Numbered from the stretch's first letter, positions 52,461-63,430 are shown. The stretch is 64,000 nt of DNA from a virus (IMGVR_UViG_3300009149_000012:64001-128000), one strand, 5' to 3'. A program made the numbers and translations. Notes: a model not told the origin generated them from the sequence alone.

Positions 52461-53966
52461 TCACCAGTTCTTGCTAATGCGGTTCTTGGTGATGCGTTTC
52501 TTGACGGGATCCGAGTTTGTGCTTTCCGATTCAGGCGGGGAAACCTCGTAGACGGGCGTGTTGGCATCCGGCGTGTGGACTGCCGGGACCACGAACATCG
52601 AAGCCGCAGCATCCGAGTCGACCGCAAAGTCCTCCGAAAGCTGCTGTTGAGAAGCGTTGCAGGACACAACCCCAAGCTCCTGAAGGTCGGCAGAGGCATC
52701 CGAATCGGCCGAGAAGGTTCCGTAGCCTGCCGACATGCCCCGGCCCACGCTGCGCAGGTAGCCTTGGCCTTCGTTGAAGTTCTCGCTGGTTGCCATCCGT
52801 TGACCAAGACGCTGGCTCACGTTGGCGACCCCGACATGACCCCGGCGCTGGGCGCTTTCAGTGTGGACACGCATGATTGACTGCGCCTGGGCGAAGTTGC
52901 CGTTGTTGGCCTGTTCTTCGGCTTCAAGCTGCGCCTTGGCCGTTTGAGCCAAGACCACGATGGCGTCGACGTCCTTGGTCGGCAAGTCCTGCTGTTCGCC
53001 GTTCTTGACGAACCGGACCTTGGCTTTGATGTCTTCGTTGTGATCCAACTTTTTGCCGTCCTTGTCGAGGCAACTGTACTTGACGTTCACCTCGAAGGCG
53101 TTGACGGCACGAGGGAAAGCTTGCTTTTGCTCTTTGAACTTGATCAAGAACACGAGGTGACGCGTTTCCTCAGCGAGAAGGTCAGGCGTCTGGACACTCA
53201 CTTCGCCGGTCACTTCCTCTTCAACGTCGGCATCCGAGATGCACTCAACGATCTGGTGACCGTTGAGGGGTTTGACTTCCAACGTGACGTCGGTTGCGTA
53301 GGTCGACACCAGCCCGCCAAGCTCTTTGCCGAAGGCGGCGAGAGCCGAGTCAGGGTTCTCGATGTAGGCGTAGTTGCCCTTGCCCTCTTTGGACCACTCG
53401 GTCAGAAGCTTTTGGTCGCAGTCACGGGCGTTGCCGTAGCCGAAAGCGCTGACAGACACCCGACCTCGGTTGGCTTCCAAGAGCTTGAGCAGTTCAGGAG
53501 CGCGCTGAGCGACGCCGCAGTTGGCGTAGCCGTCCGTGAACATGATGGCCCGGTGGATGATGTCCGAGCCCAGGTCCATGGAGTTCATCAACTCGACGGC
53601 CTTCAGGAAGCCGCCAGAAAAGTTGGTGCTCCCGCCAGGGGTGAGCTTGTTGACTTCGGCCTTGAGCAGTTCCTTGGTCTGAGGCGTGATCTCGGTCGGG
53701 GGGTAGGACCGCACACGGTCATCAAACGCCACGAGCCCACAGTAGTCGCCTTCCTGAAGGTGGTCGATGAGCTTGAGGACGGAACGCTTGGCGTACTCCA
53801 TCTTGTTGCCCATGCCCATGCTGCCGGACACGTCCATGACCGGCATCACGAAGATGCGGGGCCGTTTGGCGGTCGCCGACGGGGCGGTGAGGCTGATCAC
53901 AAGGTGGGCGTCGGTGTCGACGTCATGACGGACTTGGTCAAATGTATGGCGAGCTTCAATCTTCAT
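52461..53966 (-). CDS. von Willebrand factor A domain protein
   Basis: MIDAS DVSGSM, GGSTN, FTDG, FGYG. Confidence 0.9.
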   Translation of the reverse strand: MKIEARHTFDQVRHDVDTDAHLVISLTAPSATAKRPRIFVMPVMDVSGSMGMGNKMEYAKRSVLKLIDHLQEGDYCGLVAFDDRVRSYPPTEITPQTKELLKAEVNKLTPGGSTNFSGGFLKAVELMNSMDLGSDIIHRAIMFTDGYANCGVAQRAPELLKLLEANRGRVSVSAFGYGNARDCDQKLLTEWSKEGKGNYAYIENPDSALAAFGKELGGLVSTYATDVTLEVKPLNGHQIVECISDADVEEEVTGEVSVQTPDLLAEETRHLVFLIKFKEQKQAFPRAVNAFEVNVKYSCLDKDGKKLDHNEDIKAKVRFVKNGEQQDLPTKDVDAIVVLAQTAKAQLEAEEQANNGNFAQAQSIMRVHTESAQRRGHVGVANVSQRLGQRMATSENFNEGQGYLRSVGRGMSAGYGTFSADSDASADLQELGVVSCNASQQQLSEDFAVDSDAAASMFVVPAVHTPDANTPVYEVSPPESESTNSDPVKKRITKNRISKNW

Positions 53967-54159
53967 GGGATTCCTCCGTACACGTTATCGGTCGGTGCCA
54001 TCAACGCAGAGCCGGACATGCTCCCATAATCAATGACGTGCCTTACGATCGTCCTCAGTGTCTCCAAAACCCTTTCGGGCGCGATTCACTGTACGGGGAC
54101 TCAACCTATGAAGGCGCATCCCCTTGCAGAAGCCATCCTCTCAAAGATGACTTTTGATG

Positions 54160-54417
54160 TCAAGCGTGTTTTTCACACCGCCACTGAAGTCGACCAAGAG
54201 AGTCTCGGCCGATGATCCGACGTGTCGCCGGTTCTCCACACAGAAACTTGAGTTTGCTAGACCGACACTTGTAAATCTTCACATGGCGCCTGCCCCGGGG
54301 CAGGCCCCCGGTTTGAGCGTAACCGCACACGAGGCACTTGGAGCACTGCCAGTAGCGATCTGGCTTTTCACCAAGCGGGATTCCTCGAAGGGGCTGCCAG
54401 TCATGTTCGCAATCCAT
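54160..54417 (-). CDS. Small Cys/His-rich protein
   Basis: CEHDW..CSKC..C..C..CEKH. Confidence 0.45.
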   Translation of the reverse strand: MDCEHDWQPLRGIPLGEKPDRYWQCSKCLVCGYAQTGGLPRGRRHVKIYKCRSSKLKFLCGEPATRRIIGRDSLGRLQWRCEKHA

Positions 54418-54436
54418 GCGGCCGACACTAGCACAG

Positions 54437-54523
54437 CGGAAGCAGGAGGTATCGATCCCCAAGCAGCGTGAGCCGCTCGTACACGTTTCCAACGTGTCCC
54501 GTACCCTGTACGGTTCAGCTTCC
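54437..54523 (-). tRNA. tRNA-Ser(GGA), atypical T-loop
   Basis: GGAAGC acceptor; ACACG-TT GGA AA-CGTGT; long V-arm; T-loop ATCGATA. Confidence 0.75.
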
Positions 54524-54784
54524 AGGCAGGGTCTCGTAGGTCGCCAATTGCTGGGACCACAAGACCCCTTCGATCCACCCAAGGGCTCCCGCTGCGGCGA
54601 GCGAGTTGCCTTCCCGGGCGATTCTCAAAACGTTCGGGATCATCCAGAGCACGTGGCACAGGACTTCCATCCGTTCCGGGATCTTGCCCGGGAGCGTGTA
54701 TTGCTTCGGAGTAGCACCCGCCTCTTGAAGCAAATCACGGTACTTCTCAAGAGCCCGCTCGAAATGAGGATCACTTGGTGCCAA
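54515..54784 (-). CDS. Hypothetical protein
   Basis: HVLWM...LGWIEGVLW motif. Confidence 0.55.
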   Translation of the reverse strand: MAPSDPHFERALEKYRDLLQEAGATPKQYTLPGKIPERMEVLCHVLWMIPNVLRIAREGNSLAAAGALGWIEGVLWSQQLATYETLPGS

Positions 54785-55286
54785 GGTACCACGTCCATTG
54801 CTCGGGAGCGTTGTTCATCGGGATGGGAGGCGGGGTGAGCGGCAGCGTCTTGGGCTGGACCGGCTTTTTCAGCAGCCGCATCCCTGCTTGCTGCGGCGTG
54901 CGACCCGCTTTGCGGTTGTTGCACGGGTAGCAACACGTCACGATGTTCGTCCACACAGTCTTCCCACCTTGGGAGCGAGGGATGACGTGGTCGTAGTTGA
55001 GCTTGCTCATCGTCGCCTTCGTTCCGCAATACTGGCAAACGAACTTGTCCCGGGTCATCACGTTGATCCGAGAGAACTTCACAGCCTTTTTGCGAGCCGA
55101 AACCGTCTTCGTGAGTCGAGCCACGGCGGGAATGCTCATCTCCACCGAAGGACTACGGACCGTTTCCTCATACTCTTCCAGCACCTCGATCTTGCCCATC
55201 CACAGCAAGCACACGGCTTGCTCCCAGGGTACGATCCGGTGAGGCTGGAAGCCTTGAGTCAGGATAAGTGTGTGGGATGAAGCCAT
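54771..55286 (-). CDS. HNH endonuclease (McrA-like)
   Basis: RDKFVCQYCG..DHVIPRSQGG..WTNIVTCCYPCNNRK. Confidence 0.9.
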   Translation of the reverse strand: MASSHTLILTQGFQPHRIVPWEQAVCLLWMGKIEVLEEYEETVRSPSVEMSIPAVARLTKTVSARKKAVKFSRINVMTRDKFVCQYCGTKATMSKLNYDHVIPRSQGGKTVWTNIVTCCYPCNNRKAGRTPQQAGMRLLKKPVQPKTLPLTPPPIPMNNAPEQWTWYLGTK

Positions 55287-55344
55287 GATAAGCCTACCGT
55301 TTCTTTTTCCGCATCATTCAGCCTTGTTTACACCGTGGAATTAG

Positions 55345-55701
55345 TGGAGTCGCCGGGAATCGAACCCGGGTCCGAAAAACATCGTTTCAATCCGTCTACG
55401 TGCGTAGCCCTTCTACCCTCGGGCGGGGTTTGCCGATCTTCCAACCGACATGGGGATTTTCATTGTCTTGATCGGGGGTTATCGACACGTCCCTCAATTT
55501 TGCCCCGAAGCATCCTGTGTGGGTTGACGTCGCCGGGGTACTCAGGACCCTTCCCGTTTGACGGACACTACGCTGCTGCGAGCATCAGGTTACCATTATC
55601 GTTGGCAATTGACGTTCCACCTGTTTGATCATGGCTGTTCAGGTGGCTCAGCCAGCACGCGAGATCGAACCTCCATCCTCCGTCGAAACCAAGTCGACCC
55701 C
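55345..55701 (-). ncRNA. ssrA: tmRNA, tag (A)ANDNGNLMLAAA
   Basis: 5' GGGGTCGA..TTCGAC; 3' GGTTCGATTCCCGGCGACTCCA; tag ORF 55606-55568 ending TAG. Confidence 0.93.
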
Positions 55702-55746
55702 AAATGAGTCAAGAGAAGTTACACCGAGTTGATGCACCCGGCAAGC

Positions 55747-56080: not shown

Positions 56081-56167
56081 TGGTGGCAACGGGGGGAGTC
56101 GAACCCCCACGCTCACATGGAGCACCTGGGTTTGAGCCAGGCGTGTCTGCCATTTCACCACGTTGCC
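56081..56167 (-). tRNA. tRNA-Leu(CAA)
   Basis: Canonical class II cloverleaf; CCA. Confidence 0.92.
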
Positions 56168-56171
56168 AAAA

Positions 56172-56340
56172 GCGAGAGCTAACAGGACGGAGCAGAGATG
56201 CTCGGGTAGGGGCGATGAAAATGGAGTAACCGACTTGATAGTGGAAGAACTGTCGGTGTTCCAGATTGAAGTTTTTCGCACACTTTCCCGATTTGCCGTG
56301 AGCGTCTTTCAACGCTTATTGTAGGTAGGTCTTCTCTCGC
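56172..56340 (-). ncRNA. Candidate structured RNA downstream of the DIP1984-like gene
   Basis: Closing stem GCGAGAG/CTCTCGC; internal AGCGTT-GAAA-GACGCT, CCGAC/GTCGG and GAGCA-TCTC-TGCTC. Confidence 0.55.
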
Positions 56341-56358
56341 CTCGTTTCCGCCCCCGGA

Positions 56359-56862
56359 TTACTCCGGGAGGGTTACGTTCATTTCGATTTCGGTCAGGTT
56401 GCCCTTGGCGATGGCGGCTCGAATGACCGCCGCTTCTTTCGCCGCCTGGTTGGCGAACTTCAAGGCTTGTGCCTGGGTGACCATGCGCTTGGCCCGGACC
56501 TCGTTGGGGTCACGGGTGAGCGTTTCGTCCCGGTAGCTGTAGCGGTCTTTCTTGACCCCGGCGACGCTTCGCCACATCTTCTCCAACCGACCCGCACCGC
56601 CGACGCTCTTGATCGCTTCGGTGAGGGTCATCGTGTCGGAGCCAACTTCAACACGAACCTGCATGTTGTAGTCGGTCTGCGCCGTCTGAAGCTTGGCGAC
56701 CATCACATCATACGCATGGAACTTGTCAGCGATCTGCTGAGGCGTTTCCTTGTCGTCATCCTCGAAGGCGTGAAGCGAGCCATCGAAAAGGGAAGCCGTC
56801 GTGTCTCGAACCATCACAGTTCGTTTGATTGCGTCTTTCAGAATGTGTCCGGTAACTTTCAT
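56359..56862 (-). CDS. DIP1984/DUF6847-like helical protein
   Basis: KLQ.AQ..YN..V.V....MTLTEAI and C-terminal I..AI..GN..EI pattern, recognised from memory. Confidence 0.6.
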   Translation of the reverse strand: MKVTGHILKDAIKRTVMVRDTTASLFDGSLHAFEDDDKETPQQIADKFHAYDVMVAKLQTAQTDYNMQVRVEVGSDTMTLTEAIKSVGGAGRLEKMWRSVAGVKKDRYSYRDETLTRDPNEVRAKRMVTQAQALKFANQAAKEAAVIRAAIAKGNLTEIEMNVTLPE

Positions 56863-56881: not shown

Positions 56882-57610
56882 CTACACCGACGGGTCAGTG
56901 TCGGCTGAATTTTCGGTCGTGAAAGAAGCGCCCGCCTGGTTCAAATGATGAGCTTGGGCCGACGTCAACGCAAATTCGGTGGGAATCCCATCCATAAGGG
57001 CGGCAGCGGCATGAAGCGGCACGTCAGGGAAAAGCTGGCGGTACGCTCGAAGGAAAGCGATCCGGTCTGACACCGAAGTGAGGGTGAGATTGAAACGTTC
57101 CTCTTGAATACCGACGGTCAGTTCCTGGTTATTCTCTTGGTAGGGCTCATCGGGTACCCCAGCCGTAGTCACAGACGGAAGAGCCTCCCGATACGGTGCA
57201 GGAGCAAGCCCAGAGAGCCTGCCAATACGGGGTGAGCGTCGAACAGGCGGGTGGTCGCCCTCTCGAAAGGGTGTCGGGGCCGAACCTCGAATCGGCTGCA
57301 CCATGGCTTCAGCAAGGTCTGCCATCGCTTGCGGGTCGTGTATGATCTGTTCGACAAGGCTCGGATCCATGATCGGAGCGCGAGGTTCCGTACGGGTCTC
57401 CGTGAAGGGAGGCGCAACGTCTCCGCTCATGACCAACCCCCGGGGCCTCACATCACTGATATCGCCCGAATACTGAATCGGCTCACCCGGTTGCCGGGGG
57501 TACCCAGGCGGCGCCAAGCTCGAATAGATCCGAGCACTTTGGTCACGGAGCTTGAGCGCTGCCTTGTCCTCGGCTTCCTGCACGAGTTGTATCAACCGCT
57601 GCTTGCTCAC
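56882..57610 (-). CDS. Hypothetical protein with an MCP-like motif and a C-terminal L7/L12-CTD-like domain
   Basis: LAEAMVQPIR; FNLTLTSV..RIAFLRAYR...L.QAGA. Confidence 0.55.
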   Translation of the reverse strand: MSKQRLIQLVQEAEDKAALKLRDQSARIYSSLAPPGYPRQPGEPIQYSGDISDVRPRGLVMSGDVAPPFTETRTEPRAPIMDPSLVEQIIHDPQAMADLAEAMVQPIRGSAPTPFREGDHPPVRRSPRIGRLSGLAPAPYREALPSVTTAGVPDEPYQENNQELTVGIQEERFNLTLTSVSDRIAFLRAYRQLFPDVPLHAAAALMDGIPTEFALTSAQAHHLNQAGASFTTENSADTDPSV

Positions 57611-59077: not shown

Positions 59078-59095
59078 GGGGTTGATTTACACCGG

Positions 59096-63166: not shown

Positions 63167-63430
63167 TCATGATTTTCTATACACCGCCCGAAGCACCCCC
63201 GCTTTCTCGCGAGGATGGTCGTCGATGATTTGGTCGGCTAGGCTCTCCATGAGCCGATTGACCGACGTCAGAGCCTTCTCAGCGGGCTCTTGCATCCCAA
63301 GCTTGGCATTGTAGTGGTCATCAACGATCACCAGAATGCTGAAAATCTCATCACGAACCGCCCGGAGTCGTACTCCAAGCGCCTCGTGCTGGATCATCTC
63401 AAGTTTTGGTTTCTTTACCGAGCCTGACAT
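63167..63430 (-). CDS. Hypothetical protein
   Basis: GGAG RBS before MSGSVKK. Confidence 0.45.
   Translation of the reverse strand: MSGSVKKPKLEMIQHEALGVRLRAVRDEIFSILVIVDDHYNAKLGMQEPAEKALTSVNRLMESLADQIIDDHPREKAGVLRAVYRKS

Follow-up and report, generated by a model that had tools for sequence, protein, structure and literature searches.

The 64,000-nucleotide stretch IMGVR_UViG_3300009149_000012:64001-128000 (the window, to which coordinates refer unless another locus is named) carries on its minus strand a gene for a 167-residue helical protein (56359-56862) and, directly behind it, a structured RNA of 171 nucleotides (nt) measured from closing stem to closing stem (56171-56341). In this work, we show that the gene and the ~170-nt element make up a conserved module of two parts, which uncultured jumbo phages carry within their arrays of transfer RNA (tRNA) and transfer-messenger RNA (tmRNA) genes. 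The element is a genuine, evolutionarily conserved family of structured RNAs that is absent from Rfam 15, and it occurs once per genome, always directly 3' of the gene and on the same strand. Since this conserved RNA always accompanies the gene, the two probably work together. The module is encoded entirely by the minus strand of a fragment of 148.9 kb from an uncultured virus; CheckV puts the completeness of this fragment at 31%, so that the full genome would be that of a jumbo phage. The minus strand of the window also carries 19 tRNA genes and a tmRNA gene, as found by ARAGORN and Rfam.

The coupling of RNA and gene was analyzed in 91 loci with a homologue of the protein, 18 from IMG/VR (contigs of 50-530 kb) and 73 from metagenome contigs, using two covariance models that were run on all sources: R1, comprising the closing stem (P1) and the first hairpin (P2), and R2, built from 31 matches. 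R2 matched 56 of the 91 loci plus the window at E <= 1. Each of these had a single match, which lay on the strand of the gene and directly behind it; the 437 kb of sequence contained no other. In the divergent loci L011, L012 and L016 the RNA was recovered with filters off. The sole R2 match in the 64 kb of the window was the element itself (56172-56340, minus strand, 16.1 bits, full model length; 9.2 bits under R1), and one strong copy, beside the gene, was found in each of five phage records (183-529 kb), of which two are complete. In 632 kb of viral DNA unrelated to these, R2 had no real match. When IMG/VR was scanned with the 15-mer CATCTTGCTCCTGTT, most of the hits were due to chance; 80 loci among the matches listed had no real RNA and thus served as a negative control only. 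Furthermore, the neighbours of the pair vary and the pair stays: the upstream open reading frame (ORF) is not conserved, and the RNA can be followed by any tRNA, by a tmRNA or by a terminator. Gene and RNA remain together down to 28-35% protein identity, with the closing stem present in L016-L018 and a CCUGUU tail in L017 and L018.

When the flanks were aligned with MAFFT alone, the closing stem was out of register, and the sequences were cut in one register before model building. A strict descriptor, requiring a closing stem of at least 9 bp and a GNRA hairpin, fitted 20 of 44 downstream flanks versus none of the 44 reverse complements, two upstream regions and three shuffles out of 44 each. 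In a MAFFT alignment of eight sequences, 15 of the 17 P1/P2 pairs changed in a compensatory manner according to RNAalifold, and none of the cells was broken in the eight outer pairs of P1. With 31 sequences, 94.6% of the cells were paired compared with 43-52% when the partners were slid, the double-change cells numbered 199 against 22-34, and the covariation score was 1.0 against at most 0.19; none of 500 shuffles reached the observed values. With 52 distinct sequences, 90% of the cells were paired (42-52% in the slid controls), P1 reaching 94.7% with both-side changes at all 10 pairs and P2 91.8% with covariation at seven of seven pairs. The RNAs of L028 (3048-3218) and L030 (3046-3216) illustrate this behavior, being 87% identical and having four of five P2 pairs exchanged compensatorily. 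A double change from A..C to G..U between the same two RNAs suggests a further pair in the middle arm. A discrete structured RNA had been predicted here by an earlier, sequence-only reading of the window, and the comparison of homologue 3' flanks that it proposed bears the prediction out, with strong covariation.

The family has a common layout. Downstream of the homologues, 165-185 nt are spanned by a closing stem that measures 8-16 bp and differs in sequence from one locus to the next; a GNRA hairpin, mostly with a GAGA loop, lies 11-14 nt past the 5' arm, and a conserved tail (...CCACAUCUnnGUnCUGUU) stands immediately ahead of the 3' arm. The order of elements is P1, the linker J1/2 (11-18 nt, CCUA..UUA), the P2 GNRA hairpin, UGGAACGG, a long middle arm, the conserved tail and again P1. 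In most of the minimum free energy (MFE) folds of the window RNA and 31 homologues, which together with inspection are the basis for P3 to P5, the middle arm is built from a P3 that varies, an internal loop YCUUCG, a P4 of 3-4 bp (GGC/GCC, also CGCG/CGCG and GCU/AGC), a conserved internal loop RCUNAAU on the 5' side and P5 as the terminal hairpin. At the base of this domain, a helix of 2-3 bp between ACGG and the start of the tail shows modest covariation over the 52 sequences. A possible extra UGG/CUG helix beside P2 is compatible with the data, but its bases are invariant and fit an extension of P2 as well. The alignment contains ~40 conserved unpaired nucleotides; within the tail, CUG is nearly invariant and AUCU is conserved. 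The AUCU of the tail and the variable base following it showed no link to the anticodon of the downstream tRNA, and a repeat test of the RNA detected no periodicity, no repeats and no heptad or triplet array.

The window copy is a divergent member of the family, in which the linker is longer and the tail carries a short insertion, yet all elements of the layout fit. The positions assigned by the sequence-only reading were all correct on the minus strand, on which every feature below lies. P1 is formed by the 5' arm GGCGAGAG (56334-56341) and, as supported by covariation, the 3' arm CUCUCGCU (56171-56178). The RNA opens with GCGAGAG (56340-56334), 18 nt after the stop codon, and closes with CUCUCGC (56178-56172), 4 nt ahead of tRNA-Leu(CAA), as had been read from the sequence. 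J1/2 (56316-56333) is an A/C-rich unpaired linker with CCUACCUACAAUAA, aligned to the family consensus CCUA..N..UUA, and P2 (56302-56315), again supported by covariation, is the hairpin GCGUU-GAAA-GACGC with a GNRA tetraloop. The middle domain (56203-56301) is predicted from the MFE folds to comprise ACGG, P3 (CGGG/CCCG), a P4-like helix (GCGAAAAA / UUUU..UCGC), the internal loop CUUCAAUC (RCUNAAU in the family) and a P5 hairpin made of UGGA/UCCA and CCGAC/GUCGG (56256-56252 and 56234-56230). The GAAA-tetraloop hairpin and the CCGAC/GUCGG stem, both of which had been noticed in the sequence, are thus present at the positions checked. The conserved, largely unpaired and pyrimidine-rich 3' tail (56179-56202) reads AGCAUCUCUGCUCCGUCCUGUUAG and corresponds to the family consensus GAARCCACAUCUnnGUnCUGUU. 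A further hairpin pointed out earlier, GAGCA-UCUC-UGCUC (56203-56190), exists in the window sequence, but only 48.6% of the corresponding cells are paired in the family, equal to the controls, and it is a peculiarity of this phage and not a family feature. A UUUU spacer (56168-56171) separates the core closing stem, which ends at C56172, from tRNA-Leu(CAA) (56081-56167; ARAGORN, and 56.9 bits with the Rfam tRNA model); U56171 can also lengthen P1 through a G-U pair.

On the other side of the RNA, folding predicts a small hairpin UCCG-GGGG-CGGA (56347-56358) between the RNA and the stop codon TAA (56361-56359) of the gene, which is itself supported by the ORF list, the homologues and the structural model described below. 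A GAGGA lies 7 nt before its ATG, and a GGTGTA word (56883-56888) lies 21 nt upstream of the ATG and overlaps the stop codon of the upstream ORF.

Across the family, P1 starts 3-109 nt past the stop codon (median about 21); the distance is often as short as 3-15 nt, too little to accommodate a promoter, which suggests that the RNA is transcribed with the gene. A tRNA starts 0-6 nt past the closing stem in 18 of 51 distinct RNAs, so that 5' processing of the tRNA would define the 3' end of the RNA, in agreement with what had been proposed for the window from its sequence. The 4 nt between RNA and tRNA in the window resemble the 3-5 nt between neighbouring tRNAs of the array. A UUU occurs within 8 nt past P1 in 23 of 50 RNAs. 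In addition, about one third of the homologue loci have a strong G+C-rich hairpin abutting P1 between ORF and RNA, which would protect the 3' end of the messenger RNA (mRNA) once the RNA has been removed. tRNA-Leu accounts for seven of the 18 tRNAs found within 6 nt of the RNA, above its share of the arrays, in loci that are not independent of each other.

The GGTGTA word ahead of the gene, taken by the sequence-only reading as the unit's own motif, was found at 56888-56883 and proved to be over-represented in the window, with 38 copies against 11 expected, a number reached in none of 100 shuffles. Twenty-nine of the 38 copies are on the coding (minus) strand, and at least 10 minus-strand copies of GGTGTA(G/A) stand ~6-22 nt ahead of an ATG. 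Examples are 55720-55725, 56883-56888, 59088-59093 and 63180-63185; others lie ~15-20 nt ahead of the tmRNA and a tRNA-Ala. The word is absent between the gene, the RNA and tRNA-Leu, and after the gene it recurs only before the tmRNA. This placement is consistent with a single unit composed of the gene, the RNA, tRNA-Leu, a small ORF and a second tRNA-Leu, and GGTGTA may be a phage-specific promoter, a unit boundary or a processing signal.

The protein belongs to a large, sharply bounded metagenomic family of ~165-180 residues from uncultured jumbo phages. A word-index search returned 34 relatives with 38-79% identity, none of them with a Pfam domain or a name, and an exhaustive profile search at E <= 0.001 returned 643 clusters (at 50% identity), of which 582 also passed E <= 1e-10. 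No homologue was found in cultured phages by tblastn; T4 and T5 gave neither a match to the family protein profile nor an R2 match (E <= 1), and T5 was also negative for DUF6847. Among 185,579 prokaryote genomes, the sole match was in a Planctomycetota genome bin (L100, 43% identity), which hints at the host group, and two of the IMG/VR records are classed as proviruses.

The window protein had no significant match in Pfam, NCBIfam or PHROGs. Specifically, hmmscan with NCBIfam NF038048 DIP1984_fam (cut-off 70 bits) gave no hit at E <= 1, a six-frame search of the records G000-G003 with the same model gave no match at this gene, and Pfam PF20935 DUF6847 (gathering score 27 bits) gave no hit at E <= 0.1. 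DUF6847 matched three of the 34 family members weakly and below threshold (best E 0.0024). The neighbours in the Atlas are viral clusters, some of them labelled Siphovirus Gp157 or DUF6847, the latter on 15-16% of the members of the neighbour clusters. The AlphaFold model is confident (AF2; pLDDT 90.6) and comprises four long helices and a beta-hairpin, with a single conserved loop that is flexible. Foldseek of this model against PDB entry 3kdq gave a probability of 1.0 and a TM score of 0.65-0.70, and VIA-align gave Z 12.8 with an rmsd of 4.0 over 149 of 152 residues, the next chain scoring Z 7.5. 3kdq, a Corynebacterium diphtheriae protein of unknown function which we take to be the DIP1984 protein, is the only clear structural relative, at 15-18% identity. 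Judged from the model, the description of the protein as DIP1984-like is therefore right for the fold (Z 12.8 versus 7.5), but it does not extend to membership in the sequence families, as the protein remains below the thresholds of both DIP1984_fam and DUF6847. With these families and with the Siphovirus Gp157-like proteins it shares size (150-175 residues) and fold, a helical bundle with a beta-hairpin, and differs in having no above-threshold HMM hit. The family has an invariant basic/aromatic cluster (G88, R92, E94, K95 and W97, with M96 and R98 nearly invariant), a conserved loop KKDRYSY and a median pI of 8.7. The literature on DIP1984 and septicolysin contained annotation mentions only, with no published function.

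Taken together, these results are best explained by an RNA that is co-transcribed with the gene, freed by array processing and bound by the protein to form a ribonucleoprotein (RNP), a mechanism to which we give an even chance. The RNA would be transcribed together with the mRNA of the 167-residue protein and then excised by the enzymes of array processing, to persist as a discrete stable RNA; its 3' end would be set by RNase P cleavage at the tRNA 0-6 nt downstream and, in loci with no tRNA following, by a U-tract or terminator. The protein with the 3kdq (DIP1984-like) fold would then bind the conserved unpaired nucleotides, giving a ribonucleoprotein that acts in trans. Both release and binding are inferred, the latter from the constant adjacency of gene and RNA. 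The setting of the module in tRNA/tmRNA arrays suggests that the particle serves tRNA or translation biology or, as a guess from the same context, the countering of host defence.

Several observations weigh against this mechanism or against the evidence on which it is built. First, the window's own RNA is a weak member of the family (16 bits with R2, E 0.14), and its fold alone is not better than chance (single-sequence MFE -53.2 kcal/mol versus -49.2 ± 4.2 for shuffles, z -0.95), the evidence being comparative. In addition, about one quarter of the homologue loci with enough flank have no model match, most of them among the most divergent, and the Planctomycetota homologue has no recognisable RNA or tRNA beside the gene. 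The latter is on a 3.45-Mb contig in DNA of 65-70% G+C, where the gene may occur in the absence of the RNA. Besides, the basic character of the protein is only mild, and no RNA-binding domain was recognised in it. Pairing is inflated in the covariation alignments, as these were fitted to the model structure; the slid controls and the alignments made with MAFFT only argue against an artefact of this kind. Finally, the adjacency of gene and RNA could be explained by a shared transcription unit alone.

This last point is at the center of the best of the alternatives, which we nevertheless regard as unlikely: a stable RNA that stands alone in the tRNA array, is excised along with the tRNAs and acts without the neighbouring protein, the adjacency being an inherited transcription unit. 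RNA C and RNA D of phage T4 (the species 1 and 2 stable RNAs) have their genes within the tRNA region of that phage and are probably processed together with its tRNAs, and neither is known to be tied to a dedicated protein gene. The module RNA resembles them in lying within a tRNA/tmRNA array, on the tRNA strand and with the tRNA-like spacing of 3-5 nt, and the protein's lack of a known RNA-binding domain would be expected if it had no part in the RNA's function. The T4 RNAs (RNAC and RNAD), small stable non-tRNA RNAs of unknown function, provide the precedent (PMC9697503). Homology to them is not detectable, however, as R2 has no match in T4 at E <= 1 and matches all five jumbo-phage records, and the module RNA differs from them in always following one protein gene. 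An RNA independent of that gene is also difficult to reconcile with the finding that every neighbour varies save this one, that the RNA was never met away from the gene in the five large genomes or the 437 kb of loci, and that the pairing is kept down to 28-35% protein identity.

Somewhat less probable still is a cis-acting element of the 3' untranslated region that is never released, either capping the mRNA against 3' exonucleases after the RNase P cut or serving as an insulator or operator for the gene. The RNA does start 3-20 nt after the stop codon in many loci, and an mRNA within a tRNA array needs protection of its 3' end. A simple hairpin would suffice for that purpose, though, and about one third of the loci already have one between ORF and RNA; a multi-helix RNA of 170 nt with ~40 conserved unpaired nucleotides far exceeds what a stabiliser needs. 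Moreover, the next tRNA is only 0-6 nt away, which leaves no room for an expression platform.

The junction architecture, the strong conservation of unpaired nucleotides and the presence of a GNRA loop with the potential to dock on a helix would also be compatible with a self-cleaving ribozyme that separates the mRNA from the tRNA precursor, or with an RNA that senses a metabolite. We consider this improbable, given that the RNA has no similarity to Rfam ribozymes or riboswitches at E <= 1-10, lies downstream and not upstream of its constant gene partner, and carries no cleavage-site signature that we recognised. More improbable again is a trans-acting antisense partner of another phage RNA, suggested by a perfect 15-nt complement between 56197-56211 and G000:C1:133233-133247 (L099 1734-1748), 13 kb away, within a long same-strand non-coding element with tRNA-like ends between tRNA-Gly(GCC) and tRNA-Leu(CAG): the BLAST E is 0.08 for this genome alone and the other three records (G001-G003, two of them complete) have no comparable partner, so that the complement is not a family feature, and the complementary stretch resembles the anticodon stem and variable arm of tRNA-Leu, so that it may be a by-product of tRNA-derived sequence. 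Apart from this, CGAGCAUCUC in the RNA tail (56195-56204) is complementary to L099 1104-1113, which corresponds to positions 34-43 of the phage tRNA-Leu(GAG); the match starts at the anticodon, continues through positions 37-38 and takes in the 3' strand of the anticodon stem, and it may be due to chance.

The sequence-only reading had also named a toxin-antitoxin pair and a guide RNP among the possible forms of a ribonucleoprotein, and for these no support was obtained; the RNA is without repeats and, both its ends being locked in the closing stem, has no free guide-like end. In contrast to ToxIN-like type III toxin-antitoxin systems, in which the antitoxin RNA forms tandem repeats ahead of the toxin gene, the module RNA is downstream of the gene, in single copy and without tandem repeats.

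With regard to known RNAs, the Rfam search suggested in that reading found no family matching the element. Rfam 15 gave nothing over it at gathering score and, at E <= 10, only two chance-level hits: sX4 (17 bits versus 70, mostly over the tRNA) and the snoRNA ZL63 on the opposite strand (15 bits versus 50). Over the RNA in six typical loci nothing was found at E <= 1, with tRNA-like, YrlA, 6S, RNase P, RAGATH-27, GOLLD, ROOL, riboswitch and ribozyme families included. No description of the RNA was found in the literature searched, in which the catalogue of viral csRNAs covers elements of up to 151 nt only (PMC10690425). The element is thus a new family with respect to Rfam 15, to be placed among the stable RNAs of phage tRNA arrays or the structured RNAs with a protein partner, and it may well stand for a new class of RNP.

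Two further groups of RNAs deserve comparison. Like the Ro60/Rsr proteins and their Y RNAs (YrlA in bacteria), the module combines a protein gene with an adjacent RNA of 100-200 nt whose 5' and 3' ends meet in a long closing stem and which has a link to tRNA-like processing, predicted in the case of the module. However, YrlA had no match on the module RNA, its weak hits (E 0.02-0.4) falling only on tRNA arrays elsewhere in the loci; P1 covaries freely, so that it contains no conserved Ro-binding sequence; and the protein is not a TROVE/vWA protein. GOLLD and ROOL are, similarly, uncharacterised, ornate phage and prophage RNAs supported by covariation; they often adjoin tRNA genes, are three to five times larger than the module RNA and, to our knowledge, have no dedicated protein partner. 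The module RNA has no Rfam match to either of them. Both are reported to assemble into RNA-only complexes (PMC12286853).

The purpose of the tRNA/tmRNA arrays of giant phages is debated, and the module adds to them a ~170-nt structured RNA family not in Rfam, locked to a protein family of more than 600 clusters whose only structural relative, 3kdq, has been without a function since 2009. If the two did form a particle, this would be a first functional handle on the DIP1984-like fold as well as a new phage ribonucleoprotein, and the small size of the module (0.7-kb gene plus RNA) would allow direct expression and testing. It is tempting to speculate further, although we hold this as tentative and less probable than the mechanism proposed for the module itself, that proteins with the DIP1984/3kdq fold are a widespread, unrecognised RNA-binding class, each subfamily with its own cognate structured RNA just downstream. 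The jumbo-phage module would then be a compact, junction-type version, an RNP from a tRNA array acting on tRNAs, the translation apparatus or host defences.

Some features of the neighbourhood were recorded in addition. Beyond the RNA, the window contains a block (52461-55701) composed of the tmRNA, a 171-residue HNH-domain protein (55-60% identity) and a VWA-domain protein of ~500 residues, and the order gene, RNA, (tRNAs), tmRNA, HNH-domain protein and VWA protein is kept in a subset of loci (L001, L002, L003, L006, L007, L031 and L035). In the phage of L003, a different frame of 430 residues (L220, G002:C1:248707-249057) matched DIP1984_fam (E 0.0018) and DUF6847 (E 0.015) weakly and may be a second, fused relative of the fold. 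ARAGORN also reported tRNA-like genes with two-base "anticodons" (tt and ag) at L008 3706-3776 and L005 2369-2453, the former beginning right after the closing stem of the RNA.
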